Below are positions 7,840-20,978 of a stretch of 54,304 nucleotides of DNA, piece by piece (within the stretch, counting starts at the first letter, position 1; every line of letters begins with the position of its first letter). The notes under the pieces are model-generated. The model saw nothing but the letters and a program-made list of their open reading frames with translations, had not been told where the DNA came from and did not search any database. Location: positions 1-54,304 of the forward strand of contig JAYQPX010000004.1 in assembly GCA_038145565.1 (NCBI GenBank). The letters are read 5' to 3'. This stretch comes from Chloroflexota bacterium. GTDB taxonomy: Bacteria > Chloroflexota > Limnocylindria > Limnocylindrales > Limnocylindraceae. The position numbers were made by a program, and so were the translations under genes.

Positions 7840-9239
7840 CAGGCGAGTGTCCGCGGGTCGGTGATGCGACCGTTGAGCGCCGTTGCGGCGGCGGTGAGCG
7901 GTGAAGCGAGGAAGGTTCGGCCGCCCTTCCCTTGGCGACCTTCGAAGTTGCGATTGGAGGTGCTGATCGCGTATTCGCCCGGTGCGAGCTGATCGCCATT
8001 CATGGCGATGCACATGGAGCAGCCCGCTTCGCGCCAATCGGCGCCAGCATCGCGGAAGATCGTGTCGAGCCCTTCGCGCTCCGCCTGGCGTTTCACGTCA
8101 GCGGAGCCAGGCACCACCATGACGCGCACGCCGCTCGCCACACGCTTCCCCTTGAAGACGTTTGCGGCGATGCGCAGATCGCTGATGCGGCCGTTGGTGC
8201 AGCTCCCAATAAAGACGGTGTTCACTGGCTGATTCAAGATGCTCTGCCCCGCGGTGAGATCCATGTACTCGAGTGCGCGCGTCAGCGCGCGTGCGCTCGC
8301 GGGATCGCTCTCCGTGGACGGATCTGGGACGTTGCCGCTGATCGGCAAGCCCATTCCAGGATTCGTTCCGTAGGTGACCATCGGCTCAAGCGTGTTCGCA
8401 TCGATCACGATCTCCTTGTCATACGTTGCGCCAGGGTCGCTCGGTAGCTGCTTCCAGCTCGCCACCGCCTCGTCCCACGCCGCACCCTGTGGCGCGTGCG
8501 GTCTCCCCTTCAGGTAGGCGAAGGTGGTCTCATCTGGCGCCACGAGTCCGGCACGGGCGCCACCCTCGATGCTCATGTTGCAGATCGTCATGCGCTCCTC
8601 CATAGAGAGGGCGCGAATCGCTTCGCCGGCGTACTCAAAGACGTGTCCGGTGCCACCACCCACGCCGATGCGTGCGATCAGGGCGAGGATGATATCCTTC
8701 GCGGAGACGCCGTTCTGCAGTTTTCCGTCAACGCGGACGAGATACGTCTTTGGCGTGCGCTGGAGCAGGCACTGTGTGGCGAGCACCATCTCCACCTCAC
8801 TCGTGCCGATACCGAACGCGAGCGCGCCGAATGCACCGTGCGTGGCCGTGTGTGAGTCGCCGCAGACGATCGTTGCGCCAGGTTGGGTGAGGCCAAGCTC
8901 TGGCCCAATGACGTGGACGATTCCTTGGTTGGGCGACTCCCAGCCGTGGAGCGGGATGCCGAATTCGTTGCAGTTCGTCTCAAGCTGCTTCACTTGCGCC
9001 GCAGCCATCTCGTCGGCGATCGGCAGGTTGCGTGGTGTGGTCGGGATGGAGTGGTCGGCGGTTGCCACCGTTTTGTCTGGGCGACGCACCGTCAAGCCGC
9101 GCGTCCGGAGCCCGGTGAATGCCTGCGGACTGGTCACCTCGTGGATCAGGTGCAGGTCGATCGCGAGGATGGCGGGCGCCCCCTCGTCTTGGCTCACCAC
9201 ATGCTGATCCCAGATCTTCTGGACGATAGTCTTCGCCAT
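7839..9239 (-). CDS. leuC: 3-isopropylmalate dehydratase large subunit
   Basis: [32 protein letters not shown] and CSMCIAMN Fe-S motifs. Start MAKTIVQK at 9239 after TACGCT-N6. Confidence 0.97.
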
Positions 9240-9301
9240 GCGCCGAGCGTACCAGAGCGGCGCGGCGCCACAGTGAGGCAGGGGCGTGCGAGAATCCCAC
9301 C

Positions 9302-9961
9302 ATGACCACGCATCCAAACGCCCTCAATCCGCTGACCGTACTCGCGCAAACCCGACTACTCCCCGCAATCAGTCCGTTGGAGAGCAGTGTGGTGAACGCG
9401 TGGGCCGACGCGTGCATTGATAACGGCGTGTTGGCGCTCGAGCTGCTCCTCCGCGGGGACGGATCCGAGCGTGCGGCATTCGACGCAATCGCTCGACTTG
9501 CCAATTCACATCCGCAGCTTGCTGTTGGCGTGGGGACCGTATTCGACGCGACGACTGCTCAGCGTGCCTGCGACGCGGGCGCCCAGATCGTCGTTTCGCC
9601 GATCACAGATCCAGCGACGGGAAGCACATGTGCTGCAGCGGGCGTAGACTGGCTCCCCGGCGCATTTACCCCTACGGAGATCGCACTCGCAGAGCGTTCG
9701 GGGGCGACGCAGGTGAAGCTCTTCCCTGCGCTGGCGATCAACGCCCCTGCCTTCCTTCGCTCCTACCTTGCGACGAAGCCCTCCTCGCGGATCATCCCCA
9801 CCAACGTGTCGCTGGATGAGATCCCTGCACTCGTCGCCGCAGGGGCCGCTGGGTTCGGTGTGGGGGAGCGGCTCCTCGCTGGGGCGGACCCGTGCAGTGC
9901 CAGCGCGATCGGCGAGCGGCTTCACGCCGCCCTCTCAGTCGTCGGAGGGGGCGCGTACTAG
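9302..9961 (+). CDS. eda: KDPG/KHG aldolase family protein
   Basis: LELLLR (Glu/Arg), [18 protein letters not shown] and Schiff-base KLFPA motifs. Confidence 0.82.
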
Positions 9962-9982
9962 CCTCACCGCGCACCCCTCTGG

Positions 9983-9988
9983 TAGGCT
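9983..9988 (+). promoter_or_regulatory. extended -10 element (TG-G-TAGGCT) of the ilv leader
   Basis: TAnnnT hexamer preceded by TGn, 9 nt upstream of the leader ATG. Confidence 0.55.
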
Positions 9989-9997
9989 GCACACCTA

Positions 9998-10117
9998 ATG
10001 AAGACGAATCGCGCACTCACGGTTGCACCTGCGGGCGCCGGTTTCGTACGCCTTGATTCGGCGCTCGGCAGCGAGATTGCGCTCGTCGAGCTCCTTATTC
10101 AGCCCAGGCGGGGCTGA
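9998..10117 (+). CDS. ilv/leu operon leader peptide (39 aa)
   Basis: MKTNRALTVAPAGAGFVRLDSALGSEIALVELLIQPRRG*. Six of eight residues in IALVELLI are Ile/Leu/Val, and the last codons overlap the antiterminator arm. Confidence 0.8.
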   Translation: MKTNRALTVAPAGAGFVRLDSALGSEIALVELLIQPRRG

Positions 10118-10171
10118 GGAGACCAACGGGTAGCGCGAAAGACGCACCGAAGGGAACTCAGAACCCCCGCC
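10107..10171 (+). promoter_or_regulatory. antiterminator of the ilv attenuator
   Basis: GGCGGGG-CTGAG (10107-10118) is complementary to CTCAG (10157-10161) and CCCCGCC (10165-10171), the 5' arm of the terminator. Confidence 0.75.
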
Positions 10172-10192
10172 AGAGAGGCGGGGGTTTCGTGT
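10162..10192 (+). terminator. attenuator intrinsic terminator
   Basis: 10-bp stem AACCCCCGCC / GGCGGGGGTT with an AGAGA loop and a short T-rich tail, about 20 nt upstream of the ilvB ATG. Confidence 0.78.
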
Positions 10193-10210
10193 ACTTAGAG
10201 AGGAGTTGAG

Positions 10211-12115
10211 ATGACGCAAGCGAAGCACGTGCCTGGTGCGGGATCAACCGCGGCACTCGCCTCGGAGCGTGCGCGCAAAGAGATGCTGCGCGATGCGCGC
10301 ATTGAGCGTCGTGGCGGGCCACGTCCACGCATCGGCGCCGATGCACTCTGCGAAGCGCTTCTCCTTCAGGGGAGCACGACCATCTGGGGGTATCCGGGCG
10401 GCGTGATCCTTCCTCTCTACGACGTGCTCGTTGACCATCCTGGACTGCGTCACATTCTCGTCCGACACGAACAGGCCGCGGCACATGCCGCTGATGGATA
10501 CGCGCGCGCATCGGGGAAGGTCGGCGTATGTCTTGGAACGTCGGGTCCTGGTGCGACGAATCTTGTGACCGGAATCGGCACCTCCATGCTCGACTCCGTA
10601 CCCGTGGTCGCGATCACCGGCAACGTTCCTGGCGTCTTGCTTGGGAAAGATGCCTTCCAGGAGATTGATATCACGGGCATCACGCTCCCGATGACAAAGC
10701 ACAACTATCTCGTGCGTAGTGCGGATGAGATCCCGCACGTCATTGCAGAAGCGTTCCATATTGCGCGCAGCGGTCGCCCTGGTCCCGTGCACGTGGACAT
10801 CACGAAAGATGCGCTGATGGGCGAGACGAACGCGCCGCACCCGACGCAAGGTGCGGTGGAGGCGGGCCTCCCTGGATACCGACCGAAGTTGGATGGAAAT
10901 GCGCGGCAGATCAAACTGCTCGCCGAAGCGATAGCTGCCGCCAAGCGGCCGCTCATCCTCGCCGGACACGGTGTGCTCATCGCACAGGGAGAGCGCGAGC
11001 TGCTCGAACTTGCGCGTCAGGCGCAGATTCCGATTGCTTGGACGCTGCTTGGGATTGGCGTGGTGGATGAGAGCGATCCACTCGCATATGGATACATGGG
11101 GATGCACGGATGGAAGCATGTGAATCGCGCCATCCAGTCGTCTGACCTGCTGATTGGGATTGGCATGCGCTATGACGATCGCGTCACCGGCAATGTGCGC
11201 ACCTTCGCCCCATCCGCAAAGATCGTGCATATTGATATTGATCCCGCCGAGATTGGGAAGAATGTCGTTGCAGATATCCCAATCGTGGGTGACGCGAAGC
11301 GCGTGCTCGAAGCGCTGCTTCCAGTGACACAGCGGGTTGAGCCTGCCGCACGCGCCGAATACTTCACGGAACTCGCCGCATGGCGCAAGGAGAGCGAGAG
11401 CTCCGCCTGGCACGGCTCTGGTGGCTGGCGTGATGGCGTTCTCTCCGCCGATTTTGTGGTGGAGCGCATTGCCGCAGGGTCCGGCTACGACGCAAACGTG
11501 ACCGCTGATGTGGGCCAGAACCAGATGTGGGTGGCGCGATACGGTGGCTTCAAGCGTGCAAATTCGCACCTCTCATCGGGTGGCCTCGGTACGATGGGCT
11601 TCGCCCTCCCAGCCGCAATGGGTGCGGCGATCGGCACACCAGAGAAGACCTCGTGGGCGATCGCGGGTGATGGCGGTTTCCAAATGACGCTGCAAGAGTT
11701 GGCCACCATTGTGCAGGAGCGCATCCCTGTGAAGATTGCGCTGATGGACAACAAGAAGCTCGGCATGATCCGCCAGTGGCAGGAGATCGTCTACGCCGGC
11801 AACTACCACTCTGAACAACTTGCGGGACCCGACTATCTGAAACTCTGCGAGGCATACGGGCTCCCGGCATGGAAAGTCGCCAAGCCCGAAGAGGTGGATG
11901 CCGCGGTTGCGGCCGCACTCGCCGTGGATGGACCTGCGCTGATCTGGTTCGAGATCGCAGAGCGGCAGAACGTCTATCCAATGATGCCGGCGGGGAAGGG
12001 CCTCTCGGACCTCATCGACAAGTGGGGCGACGACGGGGAGGATGTCACCGAAGGGTCGAGCGGTCCCCGCCTTGATCCAACAGATCCGAACGCACCGAAG
12101 GGTGGTACCGAGTGA
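10211..12115 (+). CDS. ilvB: acetolactate synthase large subunit
   Basis: GYPGG, RHEQ, TSGPGATN, FQEID, HLSSGGLGTMGF and the ThDP motif GDGGFQM...N. AGGAG RBS. Confidence 0.97.
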   Translation: MTQAKHVPGAGSTAALASERARKEMLRDARIERRGGPRPRIGADALCEALLLQGSTTIWGYPGGVILPLYDVLVDHPGLRHILVRHEQAAAHAADGYARASGKVGVCLGTSGPGATNLVTGIGTSMLDSVPVVAITGNVPGVLLGKDAFQEIDITGITLPMTKHNYLVRSADEIPHVIAEAFHIARSGRPGPVHVDITKDALMGETNAPHPTQGAVEAGLPGYRPKLDGNARQIKLLAEAIAAAKRPLILAGHGVLIAQGERELLELARQAQIPIAWTLLGIGVVDESDPLAYGYMGMHGWKHVNRAIQSSDLLIGIGMRYDDRVTGNVRTFAPSAKIVHIDIDPAEIGKNVVADIPIVGDAKRVLEALLPVTQRVEPAARAEYFTELAAWRKESESSAWHGSGGWRDGVLSADFVVERIAAGSGYDANVTADVGQNQMWVARYGGFKRANSHLSSGGLGTMGFALPAAMGAAIGTPEKTSWAIAGDGGFQMTLQELATIVQERIPVKIALMDNKKLGMIRQWQEIVYAGNYHSEQLAGPDYLKLCEAYGLPAWKVAKPEEVDAAVAAALAVDGPALIWFEIAERQNVYPMMPAGKGLSDLIDKWGDDGEDVTEGSSGPRLDPTDPNAPKGGTE

Positions 12116-12684
12116 GCGGCGCACCGAAAGGCGCAGCAGGCGCGGCACCCGCACGAGCACTCCCAGGCTCAGGTGATGAACGTCGCCACCTGATCGTGGC
12201 GATCGTGAACAACCGTCCCGGTGTGTTGAATCGCGTGGCCAGCCTGATGCGCGCTCGCAACTTCAACATTGAGTCGCTCGCCGTCTCCGCGACCGAGCGG
12301 AGCGACACGTCGCGTATGACGTTGACAATCGTTGGCGACGAGGTGCACGTGGAGCAGGCGACGAAGCAGCTCTACAAGTTGATCGATGTCCTCAAGGTGC
12401 AGGACGTGACCGACGAGGCGATCGTTGAGCACGAACTGGCCCTGATCAAGGTCCGCGTGACTGGCAAGAGCCGCCCTGAGGTCGTGAGCATCGCCGAGAT
12501 GCATCACGGCCGCGTGGTGGATCTGAGCGACGACGCGGTGATCGTGGAAGTCGTGGGTGAGCCCAGCGAGGTGGACCGAGTGGTCGAACTCCTTCGGGAG
12601 TTCGGAATCAAGGAGCTGGTGCGAACCGGCTCAGTAGTGATGTCCCGCGGCAGCGGGTCAATTGAGGAGCAGGTGAAGCGATGA
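12112..12684 (+). CDS. ilvN: acetolactate synthase small regulatory subunit
   Basis: NRPGVLNRVASLMRARNFNIESL ACT domain; ELVRTG C-terminus. Confidence 0.95.
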   Translation: MSGAPKGAAGAAPARALPGSGDERRHLIVAIVNNRPGVLNRVASLMRARNFNIESLAVSATERSDTSRMTLTIVGDEVHVEQATKQLYKLIDVLKVQDVTDEAIVEHELALIKVRVTGKSRPEVVSIAEMHHGRVVDLSDDAVIVEVVGEPSEVDRVVELLREFGIKELVRTGSVVMSRGSGSIEEQVKR

Positions 12685-13730
12685 GTTTCAAGATGTACTA
12701 CAGCGCCGAAGCACCGTTCACGAGCATCGAGAAGCAGCAGATTGCGGTTGTTGGCTATGGGAGCCAGGGCCATGCGCATGCGAAGAACCTGAAGGAGTCG
12801 GGACTCAACGTGATCGTCGCACTCGCCGAAGGCTCAAAGAGCCGCGCCGTTGCACAGGCGGACGGCTTTGAGGTGGTGACCGCCGCTGAGGCGGCGAAGC
12901 GCGCTGACGTGATCATGATCGCCATTCCGGACACTGCTCAGAAGAAGATGTACGAGGCGGAGATTGCGCCGAACATCAAGCCTGGTGCGCTCCTCCTCTT
13001 CGCACACGGGTTCAACATTCACTTCAAGCGCATCTCGCCTGCAGAGGGAATCGATGTCGGCATGGTTGCGCCGAAAGGTCCAGGGCACCTAGTCCGCTCT
13101 GTCTATGTCTCAGGCGGCGGCGTCCCCGCACTCTTTGCTGTGCATCAGGACGCAACGGGGACCGCTCGCGCGCGCGTGATGGCGTACGCAAACGGACTCG
13201 GGTGCACGCGCGCGGGAATCATGGAGACAACCTTCAAGGATGAGACGGAGAGCGACCTCTTCGGTGAGCAGGCGGTGCTCTGCGGTGGTACTGCGCAGCT
13301 CGTGAAGAGCGCGTGGGAGACGCTGGTTGAGGCCGGCTACGATCCGCAGCTCGCCTACTTCGAGACAATGCACGAGCTGAAGCTGATCGTAGACTTGATG
13401 TACCGCGGCGGTCTCGACTTCATGCGCTTCTCGATCTCGGACACTGCGGAGTACGGTGACTATGTCTCCGGGCCACGCATCATTGACGCGTCAGTCAAGG
13501 CGCGCATGAAGGAGGTTCTCAACGAGATCCAGGACGGCACGTTCGCCAAGGGCTGGATCGCTGAGGATGAGGCGGGTCGACCGAACTACAAGAAGTTGCG
13601 CGCCGCAAACTCTGGGCACCCAATCGAGAAGGTTGGCCGAGAGCTTCGTCGCCAGATGACCTTCCTCAACCCTGTTGAGGTCGACATTGACGGTGCACAG
13701 GGCGCTGCGGAGAAGGGCGCTGGCAAGTGA
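12681..13730 (+). CDS. ilvC: ketol-acid reductoisomerase
   Basis: GYGSQGHAHA, APKGPGHLVR, ESDLFGEQAVLCGG and SISDTAEYG motifs. Confidence 0.97.
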   Translation: MSFKMYYSAEAPFTSIEKQQIAVVGYGSQGHAHAKNLKESGLNVIVALAEGSKSRAVAQADGFEVVTAAEAAKRADVIMIAIPDTAQKKMYEAEIAPNIKPGALLLFAHGFNIHFKRISPAEGIDVGMVAPKGPGHLVRSVYVSGGGVPALFAVHQDATGTARARVMAYANGLGCTRAGIMETTFKDETESDLFGEQAVLCGGTAQLVKSAWETLVEAGYDPQLAYFETMHELKLIVDLMYRGGLDFMRFSISDTAEYGDYVSGPRIIDASVKARMKEVLNEIQDGTFAKGWIAEDEAGRPNYKKLRAANSGHPIEKVGRELRRQMTFLNPVEVDIDGAQGAAEKGAGK

Positions 13731-15367
13731 ACGGCGCACCTGGACCCGGCGTCGCCACCGGTGCCGTTCGCATCTTCGACACCACGCTACGTGACGGTGA
13801 GCAGGCGCCCGGCGCTGGCCTCACCGTTGCGGAGAAGCTGGAGGTTGCGCGGCAGCTCGCCAAGCTGAAGGTGGACGTCATCGAGGCCGGCTTCCCAGCC
13901 GCCTCAGAGGGCGACTTCGAGGCGGTGCGCCAGATCGCCGAGTCAACGAAGGGGATCGGCATTGCCGCGCTCGCGCGCTGCAAAGATGGCGACCCGCAGC
14001 GGGCAATCGACGCGATCAAGGCCTCGGACCGGCCGCACTTGCACCTCTTCATTGCAACCTCAGATATCCATTTGACGCACAAGCTACGCACCACGCGCGA
14101 GGCGGCGCTTGCGGAGGCGGTGAGGTGGGTGAAGTACGCGCGCGAGCGACTCGGGCGCGACGCTGAAGTGGAGTTCTCCGCCGAAGATGCGAGCCGCACG
14201 GATTATGACTATCTGATGCAGGTGTACGAGGCGGTGGTGAGTGCCGGTGCCACCACGGTCAACATCCCAGACACCGTGGGTTACGCCATCCCATCTGAGT
14301 ATGCGGCGCTCACCAAGCGCGTCGTTGACCTGGTCGGCCGCGATGCCACCATCAGCGTCCACTGTCATAACGACCTTGGCCTCGCCACCGCAAACACGCT
14401 CGCCGCCGTCCAGGCAGGGGCGCGCCAGGTGGAGGTCACCATCAACGGGCTCGGCGAGCGCGCGGGTAACGCGTCACTTGAAGAAGTAGTGATGGCGCTG
14501 CGAACGCGACCGGGTCAGTTTGAATCGCACGACATCCGCGTCCAGACCGAACAGCTCACCGCCGCGAGTCGCTTGGTGAGCTACCTCACCGGATTCGCCG
14601 TGCAGCCGAACAAGGCGATCGTTGGCGCAAACGCGTTCGCGCACGAGTCGGGGATCCATCAGGACGGCGTGCTGAAGAACCCGCTCACCTACGAGATCAT
14701 GACGCCGCAGTCGGTTGGCCTGCTCGGCTCATCACTCACGATCGGCAAGCTCTCCGGACGACGCGGACTCCAGGCGAAGCTCACCGAACTCGGGCACGAC
14801 CTCACCGGCGAGGCGCTCGACGCGCTCTACCGCGAAGCGATCGCGCTCGCTGACATCAAGAAGGAGCTCACCGACGCCGACCTGATCGCACTCGTGGACA
14901 AGCGTGCCGCCACCGGGAGCGCGGCAACCATTGAACTGCTCGATTGGAGTGTTGCCTCGTCGCGAGGTGGCGGCTCGTCTGGTCGCGTGGAGGTGCGCAT
15001 CAACGGTGAAGAGCAGAAGGCCGAGGCCTCCGGCAATGGGCCTGTTGATGCGCTCTATGAGGCGATCGACCTTGCGATCGAACCATCACTCGGCTGGCGG
15101 CCAAACCTGTCTGAGTACGAGATTCGTGCCGTATCCGAGGGTGAAGATGCACAGGGACAGGTCTCTGTGAAGTGCCGACGCTCCATTGATGTGGATGCGG
15201 CAGGGAAGCCGCTTCCGGAGACGAGCATTGTCAGCGGCCAGGGGTTGAGCGTGAACATTATTGATGCCTCGCTTGTGGCGTATATCACCGCAGCGAACAA
15301 GCTCGCGGCAATCTCCTCTGGCGCACCGAGCGCCCCCACGAAGGGATCGCGCGAGGCGATGCAGTGA
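13727..15367 (+). CDS. leuA: 2-isopropylmalate synthase
   Basis: DTTLRDGEQ, HCHNDLG, GLGERAGNA and HESGIHQDG motifs; C-terminal regulatory domain with GNGPVDA. Confidence 0.96.
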   Translation: MNGAPGPGVATGAVRIFDTTLRDGEQAPGAGLTVAEKLEVARQLAKLKVDVIEAGFPAASEGDFEAVRQIAESTKGIGIAALARCKDGDPQRAIDAIKASDRPHLHLFIATSDIHLTHKLRTTREAALAEAVRWVKYARERLGRDAEVEFSAEDASRTDYDYLMQVYEAVVSAGATTVNIPDTVGYAIPSEYAALTKRVVDLVGRDATISVHCHNDLGLATANTLAAVQAGARQVEVTINGLGERAGNASLEEVVMALRTRPGQFESHDIRVQTEQLTAASRLVSYLTGFAVQPNKAIVGANAFAHESGIHQDGVLKNPLTYEIMTPQSVGLLGSSLTIGKLSGRRGLQAKLTELGHDLTGEALDALYREAIALADIKKELTDADLIALVDKRAATGSAATIELLDWSVASSRGGGSSGRVEVRINGEEQKAEASGNGPVDALYEAIDLAIEPSLGWRPNLSEYEIRAVSEGEDAQGQVSVKCRRSIDVDAAGKPLPETSIVSGQGLSVNIIDASLVAYITAANKLAAISSGAPSAPTKGSREAMQ

Positions 15368-16554
15368 ACACGCTCACTCAACAGGAAGCTCTCGCGCAGC
15401 GTGCGCGGAGTGGGGAGTACGACCATCTGATCGTCACCGCCCCTGGAGATGGCGTGGGGCCAGATGTCGTTGGGGCGGCACGTCGCGTTCTTGATGCCGC
15501 AGGCAGTCGCTTCGGATTCCGTATCCAGTGGCAGGAGATTGCCGCGGGCGGGTGCGCGATCGATGCGCACGGTGTGGCGATCCGCGAAGAGGATTTGCAG
15601 GTTGCAGACAGCGCAGATGCCATCCTTCTCGGCGCCGTCGGCGGACCACAGTGGGACAACCCGAACGCCAGCGTTCGACCAGAGCAGGCGCTCTTTGCGT
15701 TGCGCACCCGCTACGAACTCTTCGCCAACCTCCGTCCCGTCACTATCCTCCCAGAACTGTACGACGCGTCCCCGCTCAAGTCGGAGCGACTCGTTGGCGT
15801 CGACCTCATGATGGTGCGCGAACTGACTGGCGGCCTCTACTTCGGCAAGCCGTCTGGCGAAGAGGTGACGCCGAGCGGTCGACGCGCCGTGGACACGCTC
15901 CCGTATCACGAAGATGAGATTCGCCGCATCGCGGTGGTCGCCTTCGAACTCGCGCGCACGCGCAGCAAGCGCCTCGCATCTATTGACAAGGCGAACGTCC
16001 TCGCCACCAGTCGCCTCTGGCGCAAGGTTGTGACTGAGGTCGGTGCCGAATATCCCGACGTGAAACTGGAGCACCGTCTGGTGGACTCTACGGCGATGCT
16101 CCTCGCTACCTGGCCAGCAACGCTCGACGTGATCGTCACCGAGAATCTCTTCGGCGATATCCTCTCCGATGAAGCGGCGGTTCTTGCCGGTTCGCTCGGC
16201 ATGCTCCCCTCGGCGTCGCTCGGCACCAAGCGCACCGCACACGGCACCTTCGGGCTCTACGAGCCGATCCACGGTTCGGCCCCAGACATTGCGGGGAAGA
16301 ATCTGGCGAATCCGATCGGCACCATTCTCTCAGGCGCAATGATGTTGCGCGAGTCGCTCGGTCACGCCGATGCCGCACTCGCCGTTGAGGCGGCGGTTGC
16401 CGCCGCCGTGCGCGCGGGTGCGCGGACCGCCGATCTTGCAGGCGGCGCGGATGCTGCGGCGCTCAAGGCGGCTGGCCTGACGCTCGTCGGCACGCGTGAG
16501 GCAACCGACCTCATTGTTGAGCAGGTGCTGAACCTCAATGGTGGCGCGCAATGA
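15364..16554 (+). CDS. leuB: 3-isopropylmalate dehydrogenase
   Basis: GDGVGPDV, LLGAVGGP, NLFGDILSDE and EPIHGSAPDIAG motifs. Confidence 0.96.
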   Translation: MNTLTQQEALAQRARSGEYDHLIVTAPGDGVGPDVVGAARRVLDAAGSRFGFRIQWQEIAAGGCAIDAHGVAIREEDLQVADSADAILLGAVGGPQWDNPNASVRPEQALFALRTRYELFANLRPVTILPELYDASPLKSERLVGVDLMMVRELTGGLYFGKPSGEEVTPSGRRAVDTLPYHEDEIRRIAVVAFELARTRSKRLASIDKANVLATSRLWRKVVTEVGAEYPDVKLEHRLVDSTAMLLATWPATLDVIVTENLFGDILSDEAAVLAGSLGMLPSASLGTKRTAHGTFGLYEPIHGSAPDIAGKNLANPIGTILSGAMMLRESLGHADAALAVEAAVAAAVRAGARTADLAGGADAAALKAAGLTLVGTREATDLIVEQVLNLNGGAQ

Positions 16555-18203
16555 GCGGTGTGTTGGGCGGCGATAAGGAGCCGGTCCTTCTCTACGACAC
16601 CACCCTGCGTGATGGTGCGCAGCGCGAGGGTCTCGTCCTCTCACTCCAAGACAAGCTTCGCATTGCGCGTGCCCTCGATGAGTTCGGCATGCCAGCGATC
16701 GAGGGTGGTTGGCCAGGGTCGAATCCGAAGGACATCGAATTCTTCGCGGCGGCGAAGAAGGTCCGCTGGGAGCGCGCCAAGCTCGCCGCCTTCGGCAGCA
16801 CGCGCCACAAGTCGAACCGACCAGAGAGCGACCCGAACCTGAACGCGCTCTTGGATGCAGAGACGCCGATCGTCACCATCTTCGGGAAGAGCTGGACGCT
16901 GCACGTGGATGAGGTGATTGAGGCAACGCGCGCAGAGAACCTCGCCATGATCGCCGAGAGCATTGGCTATGTTGCTGAGCGAGGACGCGAGCTGGTGTAC
17001 GACGCGGAACACTTCTTCGACGGGTATGAGGCCGATTCCGCCTATGCGCTGGATACCCTGCGTGCGGCACGCGATGCGGGCGCATCCACGCTGGTGCTCT
17101 GCGACACGAACGGTGGAACCTTGACCAGCCGCATGAGTGAGATCGTGCGCGATGCGCGCGCGAAGCTGGCGGCAGACAAGGGTGCCCGTGACGTGATCTT
17201 GGGGATCCACTCACATAACGATGCCGAGCTCGCCGTTGCGAACGCCCTCGCAGCGGTCGATGCTGGCGTGCGCCACGTGCAGGCCACCATCAACGGATAC
17301 GGGGAGCGTGCAGGGAACGCGAATATGGTCTCCCTCATGGCGAACCTCGCCCTCAAGAGCGAACACAAGGTGGTGGGTGCAGATCGACTCGCCGACCTCT
17401 CGACGCTTTCGCACGAGGTTGCGGAGATCGCGAACCTTGCTCCAGATGACCATCAGCCGTACGTTGGGCGTTCCGCGTTTGCGCATAAGGGTGGCGTGCA
17501 CGGCGCGGCACAGTTGAAGACGCCGCGCGCCTATCAGCACATTGATCCCGCACTCGTGGGGAATCGTGGCCGCTTGGTCGTCTCAGAGCTCGGCGGGAAG
17601 GCGAACACGGGGAGCCGCGCCGCAGAGCTCGGCGTGGAGCTCGCAAACTCTGGCCTCGACTCGAAGACGCTCTCGGCACTCGTCAAGGAGATGGAGGCGG
17701 GCGGCGCAAGCTACGAAGGTGCAGAGGCGTCGTTCGAACTGCTCGTTGAACGCCACAAGCCCGGGTACTCCGCACCATTCAAGATCATGGACTTCACGGT
17801 GATCGTGGAGCAGCACGAAGGGAGCGCCTCTCGCGCGCAGGCAACGGTGCGCGTGCAGGTTGGCGACGAGGATCTGCACACTGCATCCGATGGGAACGGC
17901 CCCGTGAACGCGCTCGACCGCGCGCTTCGCAAGGGGCTCGGTGCCTTCTATCCGCAGCTGGATGCGGTGCACCTTGTGGACTACAAGGTGCGCATCCTTG
18001 ATGGCGAATCCGCCACGGGTGCCAAGACGCGCGTGGTGATTGAATCGGTGGCTGGCGGCAACGCCTGGTCCACCATGGGCGTGGGCGAGAACATCATCGC
18101 TGCATCGGCGCTCGCCCTCGCAGATTCGTTGGAGTATGCGCTGCTCAAGGGTGACGCCGCGGTTGCGCGCCGATCTGAGCGCAATGTCCCGGGCCCGCGC
18201 TGA
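16551..18203 (+). CDS. cimA: citramalate synthase (LeuA-like)
   Basis: DTTLRDGAQREG, GGWPGSNPKD, YDAEHFFDG and AFAHKGGVH motifs typical of the bacterial CimA family. Confidence 0.88.
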   Translation: MSGVLGGDKEPVLLYDTTLRDGAQREGLVLSLQDKLRIARALDEFGMPAIEGGWPGSNPKDIEFFAAAKKVRWERAKLAAFGSTRHKSNRPESDPNLNALLDAETPIVTIFGKSWTLHVDEVIEATRAENLAMIAESIGYVAERGRELVYDAEHFFDGYEADSAYALDTLRAARDAGASTLVLCDTNGGTLTSRMSEIVRDARAKLAADKGARDVILGIHSHNDAELAVANALAAVDAGVRHVQATINGYGERAGNANMVSLMANLALKSEHKVVGADRLADLSTLSHEVAEIANLAPDDHQPYVGRSAFAHKGGVHGAAQLKTPRAYQHIDPALVGNRGRLVVSELGGKANTGSRAAELGVELANSGLDSKTLSALVKEMEAGGASYEGAEASFELLVERHKPGYSAPFKIMDFTVIVEQHEGSASRAQATVRVQVGDEDLHTASDGNGPVNALDRALRKGLGAFYPQLDAVHLVDYKVRILDGESATGAKTRVVIESVAGGNAWSTMGVGENIIAASALALADSLEYALLKGDAAVARRSERNVPGPR

Positions 18204-19048
18204 TGGGTGAGAACGTCCGCGTTGCGTATTCGGGTGAGCCCGGCGCATTCGCAGAGGATGCACTCATCGCCTTCTTTGGTGAGTCAGCGAACAGTCTCCC
18301 CGTTGGCTCGTTCGGAGAGGTTCGCGAAGCGCTCCTAGACGGGCGCGCACAGTTTGGCATCCTTCCGATCGAAAACTTGGTGAACGGCACTGTTCGTGAA
18401 ACGCTCGATTTGGTTCGCGACGGTGCCCTCAAGATTGTGGGGGAGGCAGTCGTTCCCGTAAACCTCGTCCTTGCTGCGCTCCCTGGTGTCACCATCGATG
18501 AGGTGACACGCGTCTACAGTCACGCCCAGGCACTCGCGCAATCCGAACCGTTCTTGCGCACGCGAGGATGGCAGTTGCTCTCCACATACAACACGGCGGG
18601 AGCGGGTGCCTCAATCCGTGAACGAAGTGAGCGCGATGCGGCTGCTGTCCTCTCTCCTCGCGCAGCGAAGCTGCACGGTCTGGTGGAGCTTGCGAGTGGC
18701 ATCGAGCGAGATCCAGGGAACCGCACGCGCTTCTGGGTGTTGCGCTCCTCAGGGAGTACCGCTGAGGTGAGTGCACGCGCAGGTGCGCCGCGCAGCACCC
18801 TTTTGGTTGGCGTACGAAATGAGCCGGGGACCCTGCTTGCGGTGCTGCAGAAGTTTGCTGCGGCTGGCGTGAACATGAGCAAACTTGAATCGCGACCGAG
18901 CCAAGGGGGCGACTGGGAGTACGTCTTCTGGATCGATCTTGACGCCGATGCGAGTGAGCCTGCGCTCCAGGGCGTACTTCGGGAGCTGGAGGCGGTGACG
19001 AGCGAACTGCGCATCTTGGGGAGTTATCCGCGCAGCGAAGCGCTCTAA
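18203..19048 (+). CDS. pheA: prephenate dehydratase
   Basis: GEPGAFAE, LPIEN, SHAQALAQ and NRTRF motifs; ACT domain with KLESRP. Confidence 0.93.
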   Translation: MGENVRVAYSGEPGAFAEDALIAFFGESANSLPVGSFGEVREALLDGRAQFGILPIENLVNGTVRETLDLVRDGALKIVGEAVVPVNLVLAALPGVTIDEVTRVYSHAQALAQSEPFLRTRGWQLLSTYNTAGAGASIRERSERDAAAVLSPRAAKLHGLVELASGIERDPGNRTRFWVLRSSGSTAEVSARAGAPRSTLLVGVRNEPGTLLAVLQKFAAAGVNMSKLESRPSQGGDWEYVFWIDLDADASEPALQGVLRELEAVTSELRILGSYPRSEAL

Positions 19049-20907: not shown

Positions 20908-20978
20908 CGTCCTATTCTCACCGATCCTTGGACCGCCTGCGATGAGGTTGGGCTGCGGGTGAGTGCTACGCTCGTTGA

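Follow-up and report, generated by a model that had tools for sequence, protein, structure and literature searches.

The ivbL-ilvBN, ilvL-ilvGMEDA and leuL-leuABCD operons of enterobacteria are textbook attenuators. The closest characterised cases to the element described here are the ilvB attenuators of Corynebacterium glutamicum and Mycobacterium tuberculosis. Transcription of C. glutamicum ilvBNC starts 1 nucleotide (nt) from the leader peptide IlvL's start codon, and anti-antiterminator, antiterminator and terminator hairpins have mutational support (PMC11857589). In M. tuberculosis ilvB1NC, the antiterminator is masked when a ribosome occupies the stop codon of an upstream open reading frame (uORF) rich in branched-chain amino acid (BCAA) codons, and a Rho-independent terminator then forms; stalling at leucine, valine or isoleucine codons permits the antiterminator instead, as supported by SEnd-seq, ribosome profiling and reporters (PMC13236596). 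Full-text literature searches found no published description of attenuation or of a leader peptide in Chloroflexi. The stretch of DNA analyzed here (the window; 54,304 nt, positions 1 to 54,304 of contig JAYQPX010000004.1, assembly GCA_038145565.1) comes from a Chloroflexota bacterium of the family Limnocylindraceae, with a host assembly of 1.24 Mb and 62% G+C. Its ilvB is 88–92% identical to that of metagenome-assembled genomes (MAGs) named “Candidatus Limnocylindrus sp.”, the nearest named relatives, and ∼70% identical to the next ones, MAGs labeled “Limnocylindrales/Limnocylindria” and “uncultured Chloroflexia”; NCBI taxonomy places the genus Ca. Limnocylindrus in Chloroflexota, Ca. Limnocylindria. 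The intergenic region between a 2-keto-3-deoxy-6-phosphogluconate (KDPG) aldolase homologue (9302–9961) and ilvB (from 10211) is the site of a leader element that is likely a classical ribosome-mediated leader-peptide transcription attenuator of the ilvBNC-leuAB-cimA-pheA operon. The attenuator is proposed to sense chiefly charged tRNA-Leu and tRNA-Ile, with a smaller contribution from tRNA-Val.

Like the enterobacterial attenuators, the element combines multivalent Leu/Ile/Val control codons, competing 1:2, 2:3 and 3:4 helices and, directly ahead of the first structural gene, a putative intrinsic terminator. Those systems have a Shine-Dalgarno sequence and consecutive runs of control codons, whereas the leader here is probably leaderless, its control codons are dispersed, the 5′ arm of its antiterminator includes the stop codon, and it matches no Rfam leader family. 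The resemblance to C. glutamicum ilvBNC (the “ilvB-II motif”) extends to a BCAA-rich leader peptide, an essentially leaderless transcript, three hairpins with overlapping antiterminator and terminator, and control of BCAA genes led by ilvB (PMC11857589, PMC10272879). In contrast to C. glutamicum, with an IlvL of 15 codons and a leader region of 292 nt, the leader here has 39 codons in ∼215 nt, and the operon adds leuA, leuB, cimA and pheA; the two share neither sequence similarity nor an Rfam or NCBIfam family, and they belong to different phyla (Actinomycetota and Chloroflexota). The two-state logic of M. tuberculosis ilvB1NC was reproduced here in silico, by folding with ribosome-covered bases masked, although the sequences differ and an extra local 1:2 hairpin that includes the control codons is present.

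From the letters of the window, the original prediction had listed a promoter with the hexamer TAGGCT, a 39-codon leader with the control cluster I-A-L-V-E-L-L-I, a pairing of GGCGGGG-CTGAG at the end of the leader with CTCAG...CCCCGCC, and a terminator hairpin, all of which were recovered at their positions. Three items are added to that description: the anti-antiterminator 1:2, the probably leaderless start, and the limited placement of the control codons. The leader open reading frame (ORF; 9998–10117, plus strand) has 39 codons encoding MKTNRALTVAPAGAGFVRLDSALGSEIALVELLIQPRRG, lacks a Shine-Dalgarno sequence and ends in ...IALVELLIQPRRG-TGA, with the stop codon at 10115–10117. The control cluster spans 10076–10099, and its CTT-ATT (10094–10099) was invariant across all aligned sequences. 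Together with the preceding Leu codon (10091–10093), these are the correctly placed control codons, CTC-CTT-ATT (Leu-Leu-Ile, 10091–10099), which overlap segment 1 of the RNA switch; the products of the operon include Leu, Ile and Val. Among congeneric leaders, Leu, Ile and Val accounted for 11–17 of 37–39 codons, compared to a proteome value of 23%. A role for rare codons was considered and dropped, as CTT makes up 20% of Leu codons and ATT 27% of Ile codons and both are minor rather than rare. No match to leader-peptide families of Pfam or NCBIfam (IvbL, IlvL, LeuL and similar) was obtained at E ≤ 10 for the window's leader or four related leaders.

The predicted promoter is an extended −10 element, TGGTAGGCT (TGn plus TAGGCT), at 9980–9988 on the plus strand, with TAGGCT at 9983–9988 agreeing with TATAAT at only three of six positions. 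Congeneric counts, here and below, rest on 29 loci in which the region is complete and readable. All 29 carried the element as TG[GC]TA[GCA][GC]CT, always 6 or 9 nt ahead of the leader ATG; measured from the −10, the ATG begins at exactly 7 nt in the main clade and at 10 nt in the window's clade, the latter a spacing that would leave at most a few untranslated bases. The 9 bases between the −10 and the leader ATG (9998) contain no Shine-Dalgarno sequence. Genome-wide, 26 of the 30 ATGs located 5–9 nt after TGnTAnnnT were found to open an ORF of 100 codons or more, compared to 24.7% of all ATGs and three of eight at a control spacing (Fisher p = 1.4e-12). The motif also precedes one tRNA gene and a gene resembling rpsL, judged from its first residues. 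On the strength of the gene-start statistic, TGnTAnnnT is read as a working −10 element in this organism, and TGGTAGGCT is a putative promoter of this type. Leaderless mRNAs with an extended −10 appear common in this streamlined Chloroflexota genome, and the same statistic makes it probable that the leader mRNA is translated as a leaderless or nearly leaderless message. Further TGnTAnnnT-ATG starts in the window are located, e.g., at 20978 (+), 49670 (+) and 45065 (−).

The transcript can adopt three mutually exclusive pairings, with segment 2 shared by 1:2 and 2:3 and segment 3 shared by 2:3 and 3:4. Segment 1 (CTTATTCAGCCC, 10094–10105), the 5′ arm of the anti-antiterminator, lies over the Leu-Ile-Gln-Pro codons and pairs with GGGCTGAGGAG (10111–10121) in hairpin 1:2 (10094–10121; CUU-AU-UCAGCCC with GGGCUGA-G-GAG). 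Segment 2 (GGCGGGGCTGAGGAG, 10107–10121), identified by folding and conservation, contains the leader stop codon and serves 1:2 as its 3′ arm and the antiterminator as its 5′ arm. Segment 3 (CTCAGAACCCCCGCC, 10157–10171, i.e., CTCAG-AA-CCCCCGCC) forms the 3′ arm of the antiterminator or the 5′ arm of the terminator, pairing with 10107–10118 in the former and 10177–10186 in the latter; its core (10164–10171) pairs with either 10107–10113 or 10177–10184. The antiterminator (10107–10171) joins GGCGGGG-CUGAG (10107–10118) to CUCAG-AA(C)-CCCCGCC (10157–10171) and encloses a 21-nt middle hairpin with covarying pairs (10128–10148) as its apex. The putative intrinsic terminator (10162–10194) consists of AACCCCCGCC-AGAGA-GGCGGGGGTT (stem 10162–10186, a GC stem of 10–11 bp) followed by TCGTGTAC, a degenerate U-tract. 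A small hairpin within the leader ORF (10065–10069 with 10085–10089; RNAalifold helix 1) may serve as a pause or spacing element. A strong Shine-Dalgarno-like GAGGAG at 10116–10121 overlaps the leader stop (TGAGGAGAC, invariant in the genus) and belongs to segment 2; no start codon lies at a usable distance from it. Sequestration of the ilvB Shine-Dalgarno sequence by the leader's CTCCTT appeared in a single-sequence fold but was not conserved in other clades and was rejected.

Folding of the 231-nt leader gave z = −2.87 relative to shuffled sequences, and RNAalifold and single-sequence folds concurred on two states, T (hairpin 1:2, middle hairpin and terminator 3:4) and AT (antiterminator 2:3). 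Energies in four divergent representatives ranged from −13 to −15 kcal/mol for 1:2, −30 to −33 for 2:3 and −19 to −22 for 3:4; the corresponding values for the window were −13.1, −31.3 (including the middle hairpin) and −22 kcal/mol (terminator stem). State T was the full-length minimum by ∼15 kcal/mol, so the antiterminator must be kinetically trapped, as in classical attenuators. To represent a translating ribosome, bases up to 12 nt beyond the first A-site base were hidden and only RNA preceding segment 4 was folded. Antiterminator pair probability was 0.99–1.0 with A-site codons 24–33 (codon 33 being CTT) and 0 from codon 34 (ATT) through the stop; upon inclusion of segment 4, the terminator dominated (P ≥ 0.98). 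Mask folding and the class-wide architecture thereby lend support to the originally predicted logic, in which stalling would favor the antiterminator and translation to the stop would favor the terminator.

From this arrangement we infer a transcription start, translation of the ORF, termination and a response to starvation as follows. Transcription would begin a few nt past TGGTAGGCT, at or just before the leader ATG, where a 70S ribosome could start on the 5′ end. Under BCAA sufficiency, the ribosome would traverse the 39 codons to the TGA within segment 2, covering segment 2 while on codons 34–40; after its release, the local 1:2 hairpin would sequester that segment. Either way, segment 3 would be free for segment 4, the terminator would form, and RNA polymerase would stop ∼24 nt before ilvB. 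Scarcity of Leu or Ile would stall the ribosome at CTC-CTT-ATT or at earlier BCAA codons. A stall at CTC-CTT-ATT would cover segment 1 and expose segment 2, which would pair with segment 3 once transcribed (∼−31 kcal/mol), such that no terminator forms and the operon is read through. A stall at an earlier codon leaves segment 1 uncovered and would therefore count only if occlusion of segment 2, rather than 1:2, is the main brake. The amino acids sensed in this model match the cargo, i.e., ilvBNC for all three BCAA, leuA and leuB for Leu, and cimA for Ile via citramalate.

A 369-nt query covering the region was matched in 32 of 36 genomes of congeneric species. The best-conserved stretch was a core of ∼100 nt (10086–10187) with ∼80% identity, compared to ∼70% for the first 120 nt of ilvB. 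A covariance model of this core detected exactly one copy per genome (10090–10192 in the host) and gave weak matches in sister families. Lack of conservation of the leader ORF, which the original prediction had named as contrary evidence, was not seen, since a frame of 37–39 codons was present in 29/29 loci (39 in 27, 37 in two), with the C terminus L-I-(Q/R)-P-R-(R/Q)-G-TGA in each. The terminator was likewise present in every locus, starting 47–49 nt past the leader stop, with a clean T6 run after the stem in 17, while the spacer between terminator and ilvB ranged over 21–55 nt. In its N-terminal two thirds, the peptide took at least five forms that could not be aligned between clades (MKTNRALTV..., MKTSSASTTFF..., MTTVGAFQG..., MTNSALLLTPV... 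and MMTRATFQIP...). Variable sites within clades were even over codon positions 1, 2 and 3 (6:5:6 and 12:10:14), and the only indel within the leader ORF was one of 6 nt. Unalignable peptides together with even codon-position variation argue that a fixed-length translated frame with many Leu/Ile/Val codons is conserved, rather than a protein sequence. The ORF length is nearly fixed despite full turnover of the N terminus, unlike the terminator–ilvB spacer, a length constraint that the explanations tested leave unaccounted for.

Both alternative structures were 97–100% pair-compatible in 21 distinct sequences, compared to 51–60% with partners slid by one column. All 10 pairs of hairpin 1:2 were 100% compatible in these sequences and nine never varied; segment 2 was invariant in the genus save for one G-to-A change in one genome, and a C-to-U change in segment 3 of two species retained a G-U pair in both alternative helices. 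The block CTTATTC[AG]GCCC[CA]GGC[GA]GGGCTGAGGAGAC was invariant except at the three bracketed positions, which fits a triple constraint of coding, 1:2 pairing and 2:3 pairing. Double-sided changes were confined to two accessory hairpins, namely the small hairpin in the ORF (two of five pairs; 94% of cells paired) and the middle hairpin (two of five pairs, GC/CG and GC/UG/CG; 97% of cells paired), and the core helices displayed none.

Several observations weigh against codon-dependent attenuation at this locus. The three core helices are nearly invariant in the genus, and their pairing is thus compatible with the model but unproven by covariation, because helices that do not vary cannot covary. 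In naked RNA preceding segment 4, the antiterminator is also the thermodynamic optimum, so that the model depends on kinetic priority of the local 1:2 hairpin or on occlusion by the ribosome. Within the cluster, a ribosome would have to stall on the final two or three codons (CTC-CTT-ATT) to cover segment 1, and the window's own leader, with Leu, Ile or Val at 11 of 39 codons, is modestly enriched overall. The U-tract is degenerate in the window's clade (TTTCGTGT; TCGTGT directly after the stem, with a short T-run), and simple consensus scans called neither a promoter nor a terminator at the locus; the tail that the scan left uncalled in the window is UUUCGUGU, whereas 17 congeners have U6. 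Finally, as reported in PMC1262725, a comparable ilvB leader in Streptomyces coelicolor did not respond to mutation of its candidate control codons, which cautions that attenuator-like anatomy is not proof of mechanism.

The S. coelicolor mutants (PMC1262725) also bear on a different account, in which the terminator/antiterminator switch is real but is thrown by a protein or RNA acting in trans, by transcription-translation coupling in general, by growth rate or by guanosine tetra- or pentaphosphate [(p)ppGpp], with the BCAA codons incidental or secondary. The weak BCAA excess of the window's own leader would suit such a switch, as would a 30-nt block, CTTATTCAGCCCCGGCGGGGCTGAGGAGAC, that is more invariant than pairing demands and could reflect a binding site. 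That invariance is explained, however, by the combined demands of coding, 1:2 and 2:3 pairing, and the stop and the L-I codons lie exactly where mask folding switches state. BCAA richness moreover recurs in mutually unalignable leaders across the class, and no regulator gene is linked to the locus, the upstream neighbor being the KDPG-aldolase homologue. A switch thrown without codon stalling is thus considered unlikely.

Two further accounts dispense with a translated sensor altogether or with any link to the operon. The ORF could be an independent small-protein gene (e.g., for a hydrophobic membrane peptide) that carries a terminator of its own and lies before ilvB by coincidence. The main-clade peptide (MTNSALLLTPVLGGLLVLFAALIGGISNLLGLLIQPRRG) does resemble a single transmembrane helix with a basic C terminus, and the longer leader of the sister family (∼55–70 amino acids) has conserved motifs; but the window's peptide is not hydrophobic, the N-terminal two thirds cannot be aligned between clades, substitutions show no bias to third codon positions, the conserved C terminus coincides with the RNA pairing segments, the peptide has no Pfam or NCBIfam match, and ilvB would be left without promoter space of its own past the terminator, which makes a small-protein gene very improbable. 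Also very improbable is a metabolite- or tRNA-binding riboswitch (T-box-like or new) that needs no translation, even though the strong conservation and structure of the 100-nt core, its placement upstream of a biosynthetic operon and one hairpin with covariation speak for it. The core folds as a simple three-hairpin competition with no multi-helix junction or conserved unpaired pocket, and a riboswitch would leave the conserved ATG, frame, length and stop placement unexplained. Searches of 9000–11000 against Rfam (Leu, Thr, His and Trp leaders, T-box and others) at E ≤ 10 gave no relevant match, only chance-level ones, and an rnk leader match in the permissive search was discarded as it covers the terminator stem only. 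At the gathering score, no leader or riboswitch family was found in the window or in 30 related Chloroflexota leaders, T-boxes included, and the 1.5 kb ahead of ilvB likewise lacked a T-box or other such family in 19 further Chloroflexota or related MAGs and in one Paenibacillus.

Beyond the genus, ilvB follows a longer ORF rich in Leu/Ile/Val codons in 33 loci of the sister family and other Limnocylindria, e.g., ...SLLSLLRSLLVGLESLVGLLITGSRRENGGTRRNGR followed by a stop, and two deeper members carry ...LLVLSILRLVILLGWRDGG.... Leaders of soil Limnocylindrales and other Limnocylindria (loci L032–L067) have ∼55–70 codons. An analogous terminator, CCCTCGCC-GGGA-GGCGAGGG-T(n), was found in 33 of 35 loci checked outside the genus, with one stem position appearing as U-A, C-G or U-G. 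Segment 2 reads GGCGGGAG in these loci, once more a mimic of segment 4 (GGCGAGGG), and is preceded by the same CTY-ATT. When a ribosome was placed on the conserved ATT, the remaining RNA folded into a long antiterminator in most representatives tested, and in several naked RNAs segment 2 was held by upstream Leu-codon sequence. RNAalifold on the sister-family alignment returned only the terminator and a 6-bp antiterminator core, because the middle region aligns poorly. The shared core CTYATT...CCCGGCGGG and the position directly before ilvB indicate that the Limnocylindrus and longer leaders are homologous. Compared to the longer leaders, that of Limnocylindrus is shorter and has its stop inside segment 2; the longer ORFs extend 8–12 codons beyond segment 2 and end in the loop of an apparently covarying hairpin (GGCGC-UAG-GCGCC, GAUCGC-AGCUA-GCGAUC or GUCGC-AGCUA-GCGAC). 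Some of these loci have an SD-like GGAG (resembling a Shine-Dalgarno sequence) upstream of a GTG or TTG start, and the longer leaders are probably not leaderless.

The long leaders have further features of their own. Those of L032–L067, L076, L085 and L095, located ∼100–450 nt upstream of ilvB, share the blocks (G)LFxGRxRRxVAVVVTxDGRRVxxP and SLLxLLRSLLxGLxxLLGLLITGSRRENGG; a leader that did nothing but count codons would have no need of the protein-level conservation seen in the N-terminal block. At the Val-rich start (codons VAVVVT), most sister-family loci have a perfect palindrome, CCGTCGTC-GT-GACGACGG (∼1120–1140 in L036), which could be a 5′ hairpin or a protein operator and is absent from Limnocylindrus. 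Two soil Limnocylindrales MAGs also carry cyclic di-GMP (c-di-GMP)-I-GGC aptamers (RF03167, 65–66 bits, above the gathering score; L036:561–638 and L045:138–214) ∼0.9–1.3 kb upstream of ilvB.

A more speculative proposal, which we regard as rather doubtful, treats the Limnocylindrus element as a streamlined derivative of a ∼70-codon leader with shifted logic. Under this proposal, the stop may have moved into the 5′ arm of the antiterminator while the start became leaderless. The near-fixed ORF length would be a timing ruler that synchronises a 70S ribosome loading at the 5′ end with the arrival of polymerase at the terminator, and the invariant ...P-R-R-G-UGA-G might slow termination and so prolong occlusion of segment 2. 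Were this true, the switch would report general translation and termination capacity besides Leu and Ile supply.

The operon placed under the control of the attenuator spans 10211–19048 on the plus strand, with every gene overlapping or abutting the next: ilvB (10211–12115), ilvN (12112–12684), ilvC (12681–13730), leuA (13727–15367), leuB (15364–16554), cimA (16551–18203) and pheA (18203–19048). Assignments from the ORF list and NCBIfam equivalogs bear out the predicted gene order ilvBNC-leuA-leuB-cimA-pheA, with the best model above its curated cut-off for six proteins and PheA just below (214.8 bits versus 219). The ilvB start has a Shine-Dalgarno GAGGAG (10200–10205) and ATG at 10211 (10200–10213 overall). 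Only 24 nt separate the terminator stem from this ATG, too few for a separate promoter, so that expression of the operon requires read-through; given this gap, no other obvious promoter for the operon is apparent. IlvB has an N-terminal extension of ∼40 residues, MTQAKHVPGAGS...ERARKEMLRDARI... (window 10211–10330), ahead of the TIGR00118 domain (from residue 42); the extension is kept within the genus and partly in the sister family. The last gene, pheA, encodes prephenate dehydratase and is translationally coupled to cimA via an ATGA overlap; every leader variant has one to three Phe codons, but these lie far upstream of segment 1. Elsewhere in the assembly, the sole PucR-type (HTH_30) protein is full-length (531 amino acids; G000 contig C10, ∼11770–13370, minus strand), and its gene, which has no leader, lies directly downstream of another coding region. 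A crude scan of the 1.24-Mb assembly for small ORFs with an excess of one amino acid and a terminator behind them gave no convincing further attenuator.

A 39-codon ORF of this kind will escape gene callers and lies outside the families of Rfam, Pfam and NCBIfam; a curated RNA or leader model could be built from the more than 60 related leaders. The element is a first well-documented case for the class and leaves the understanding of the mechanism, a classic one in Proteobacteria and Actinomycetota, unchanged; every functional feature has precedent. The short leaderless form of Limnocylindrus and the 55–70-codon soil form together make a small natural experiment in attenuator compaction. The family Limnocylindraceae has been described as a freshwater lineage of reduced genomes, in which sigma factors are few and intergenic spacers short (PMC13212565, 2026). 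In such a genome-streamlined (∼1.2 Mb), uncultivated freshwater Chloroflexota lineage with few regulators, attenuation of BCAA biosynthesis by a leader peptide would have been retained.

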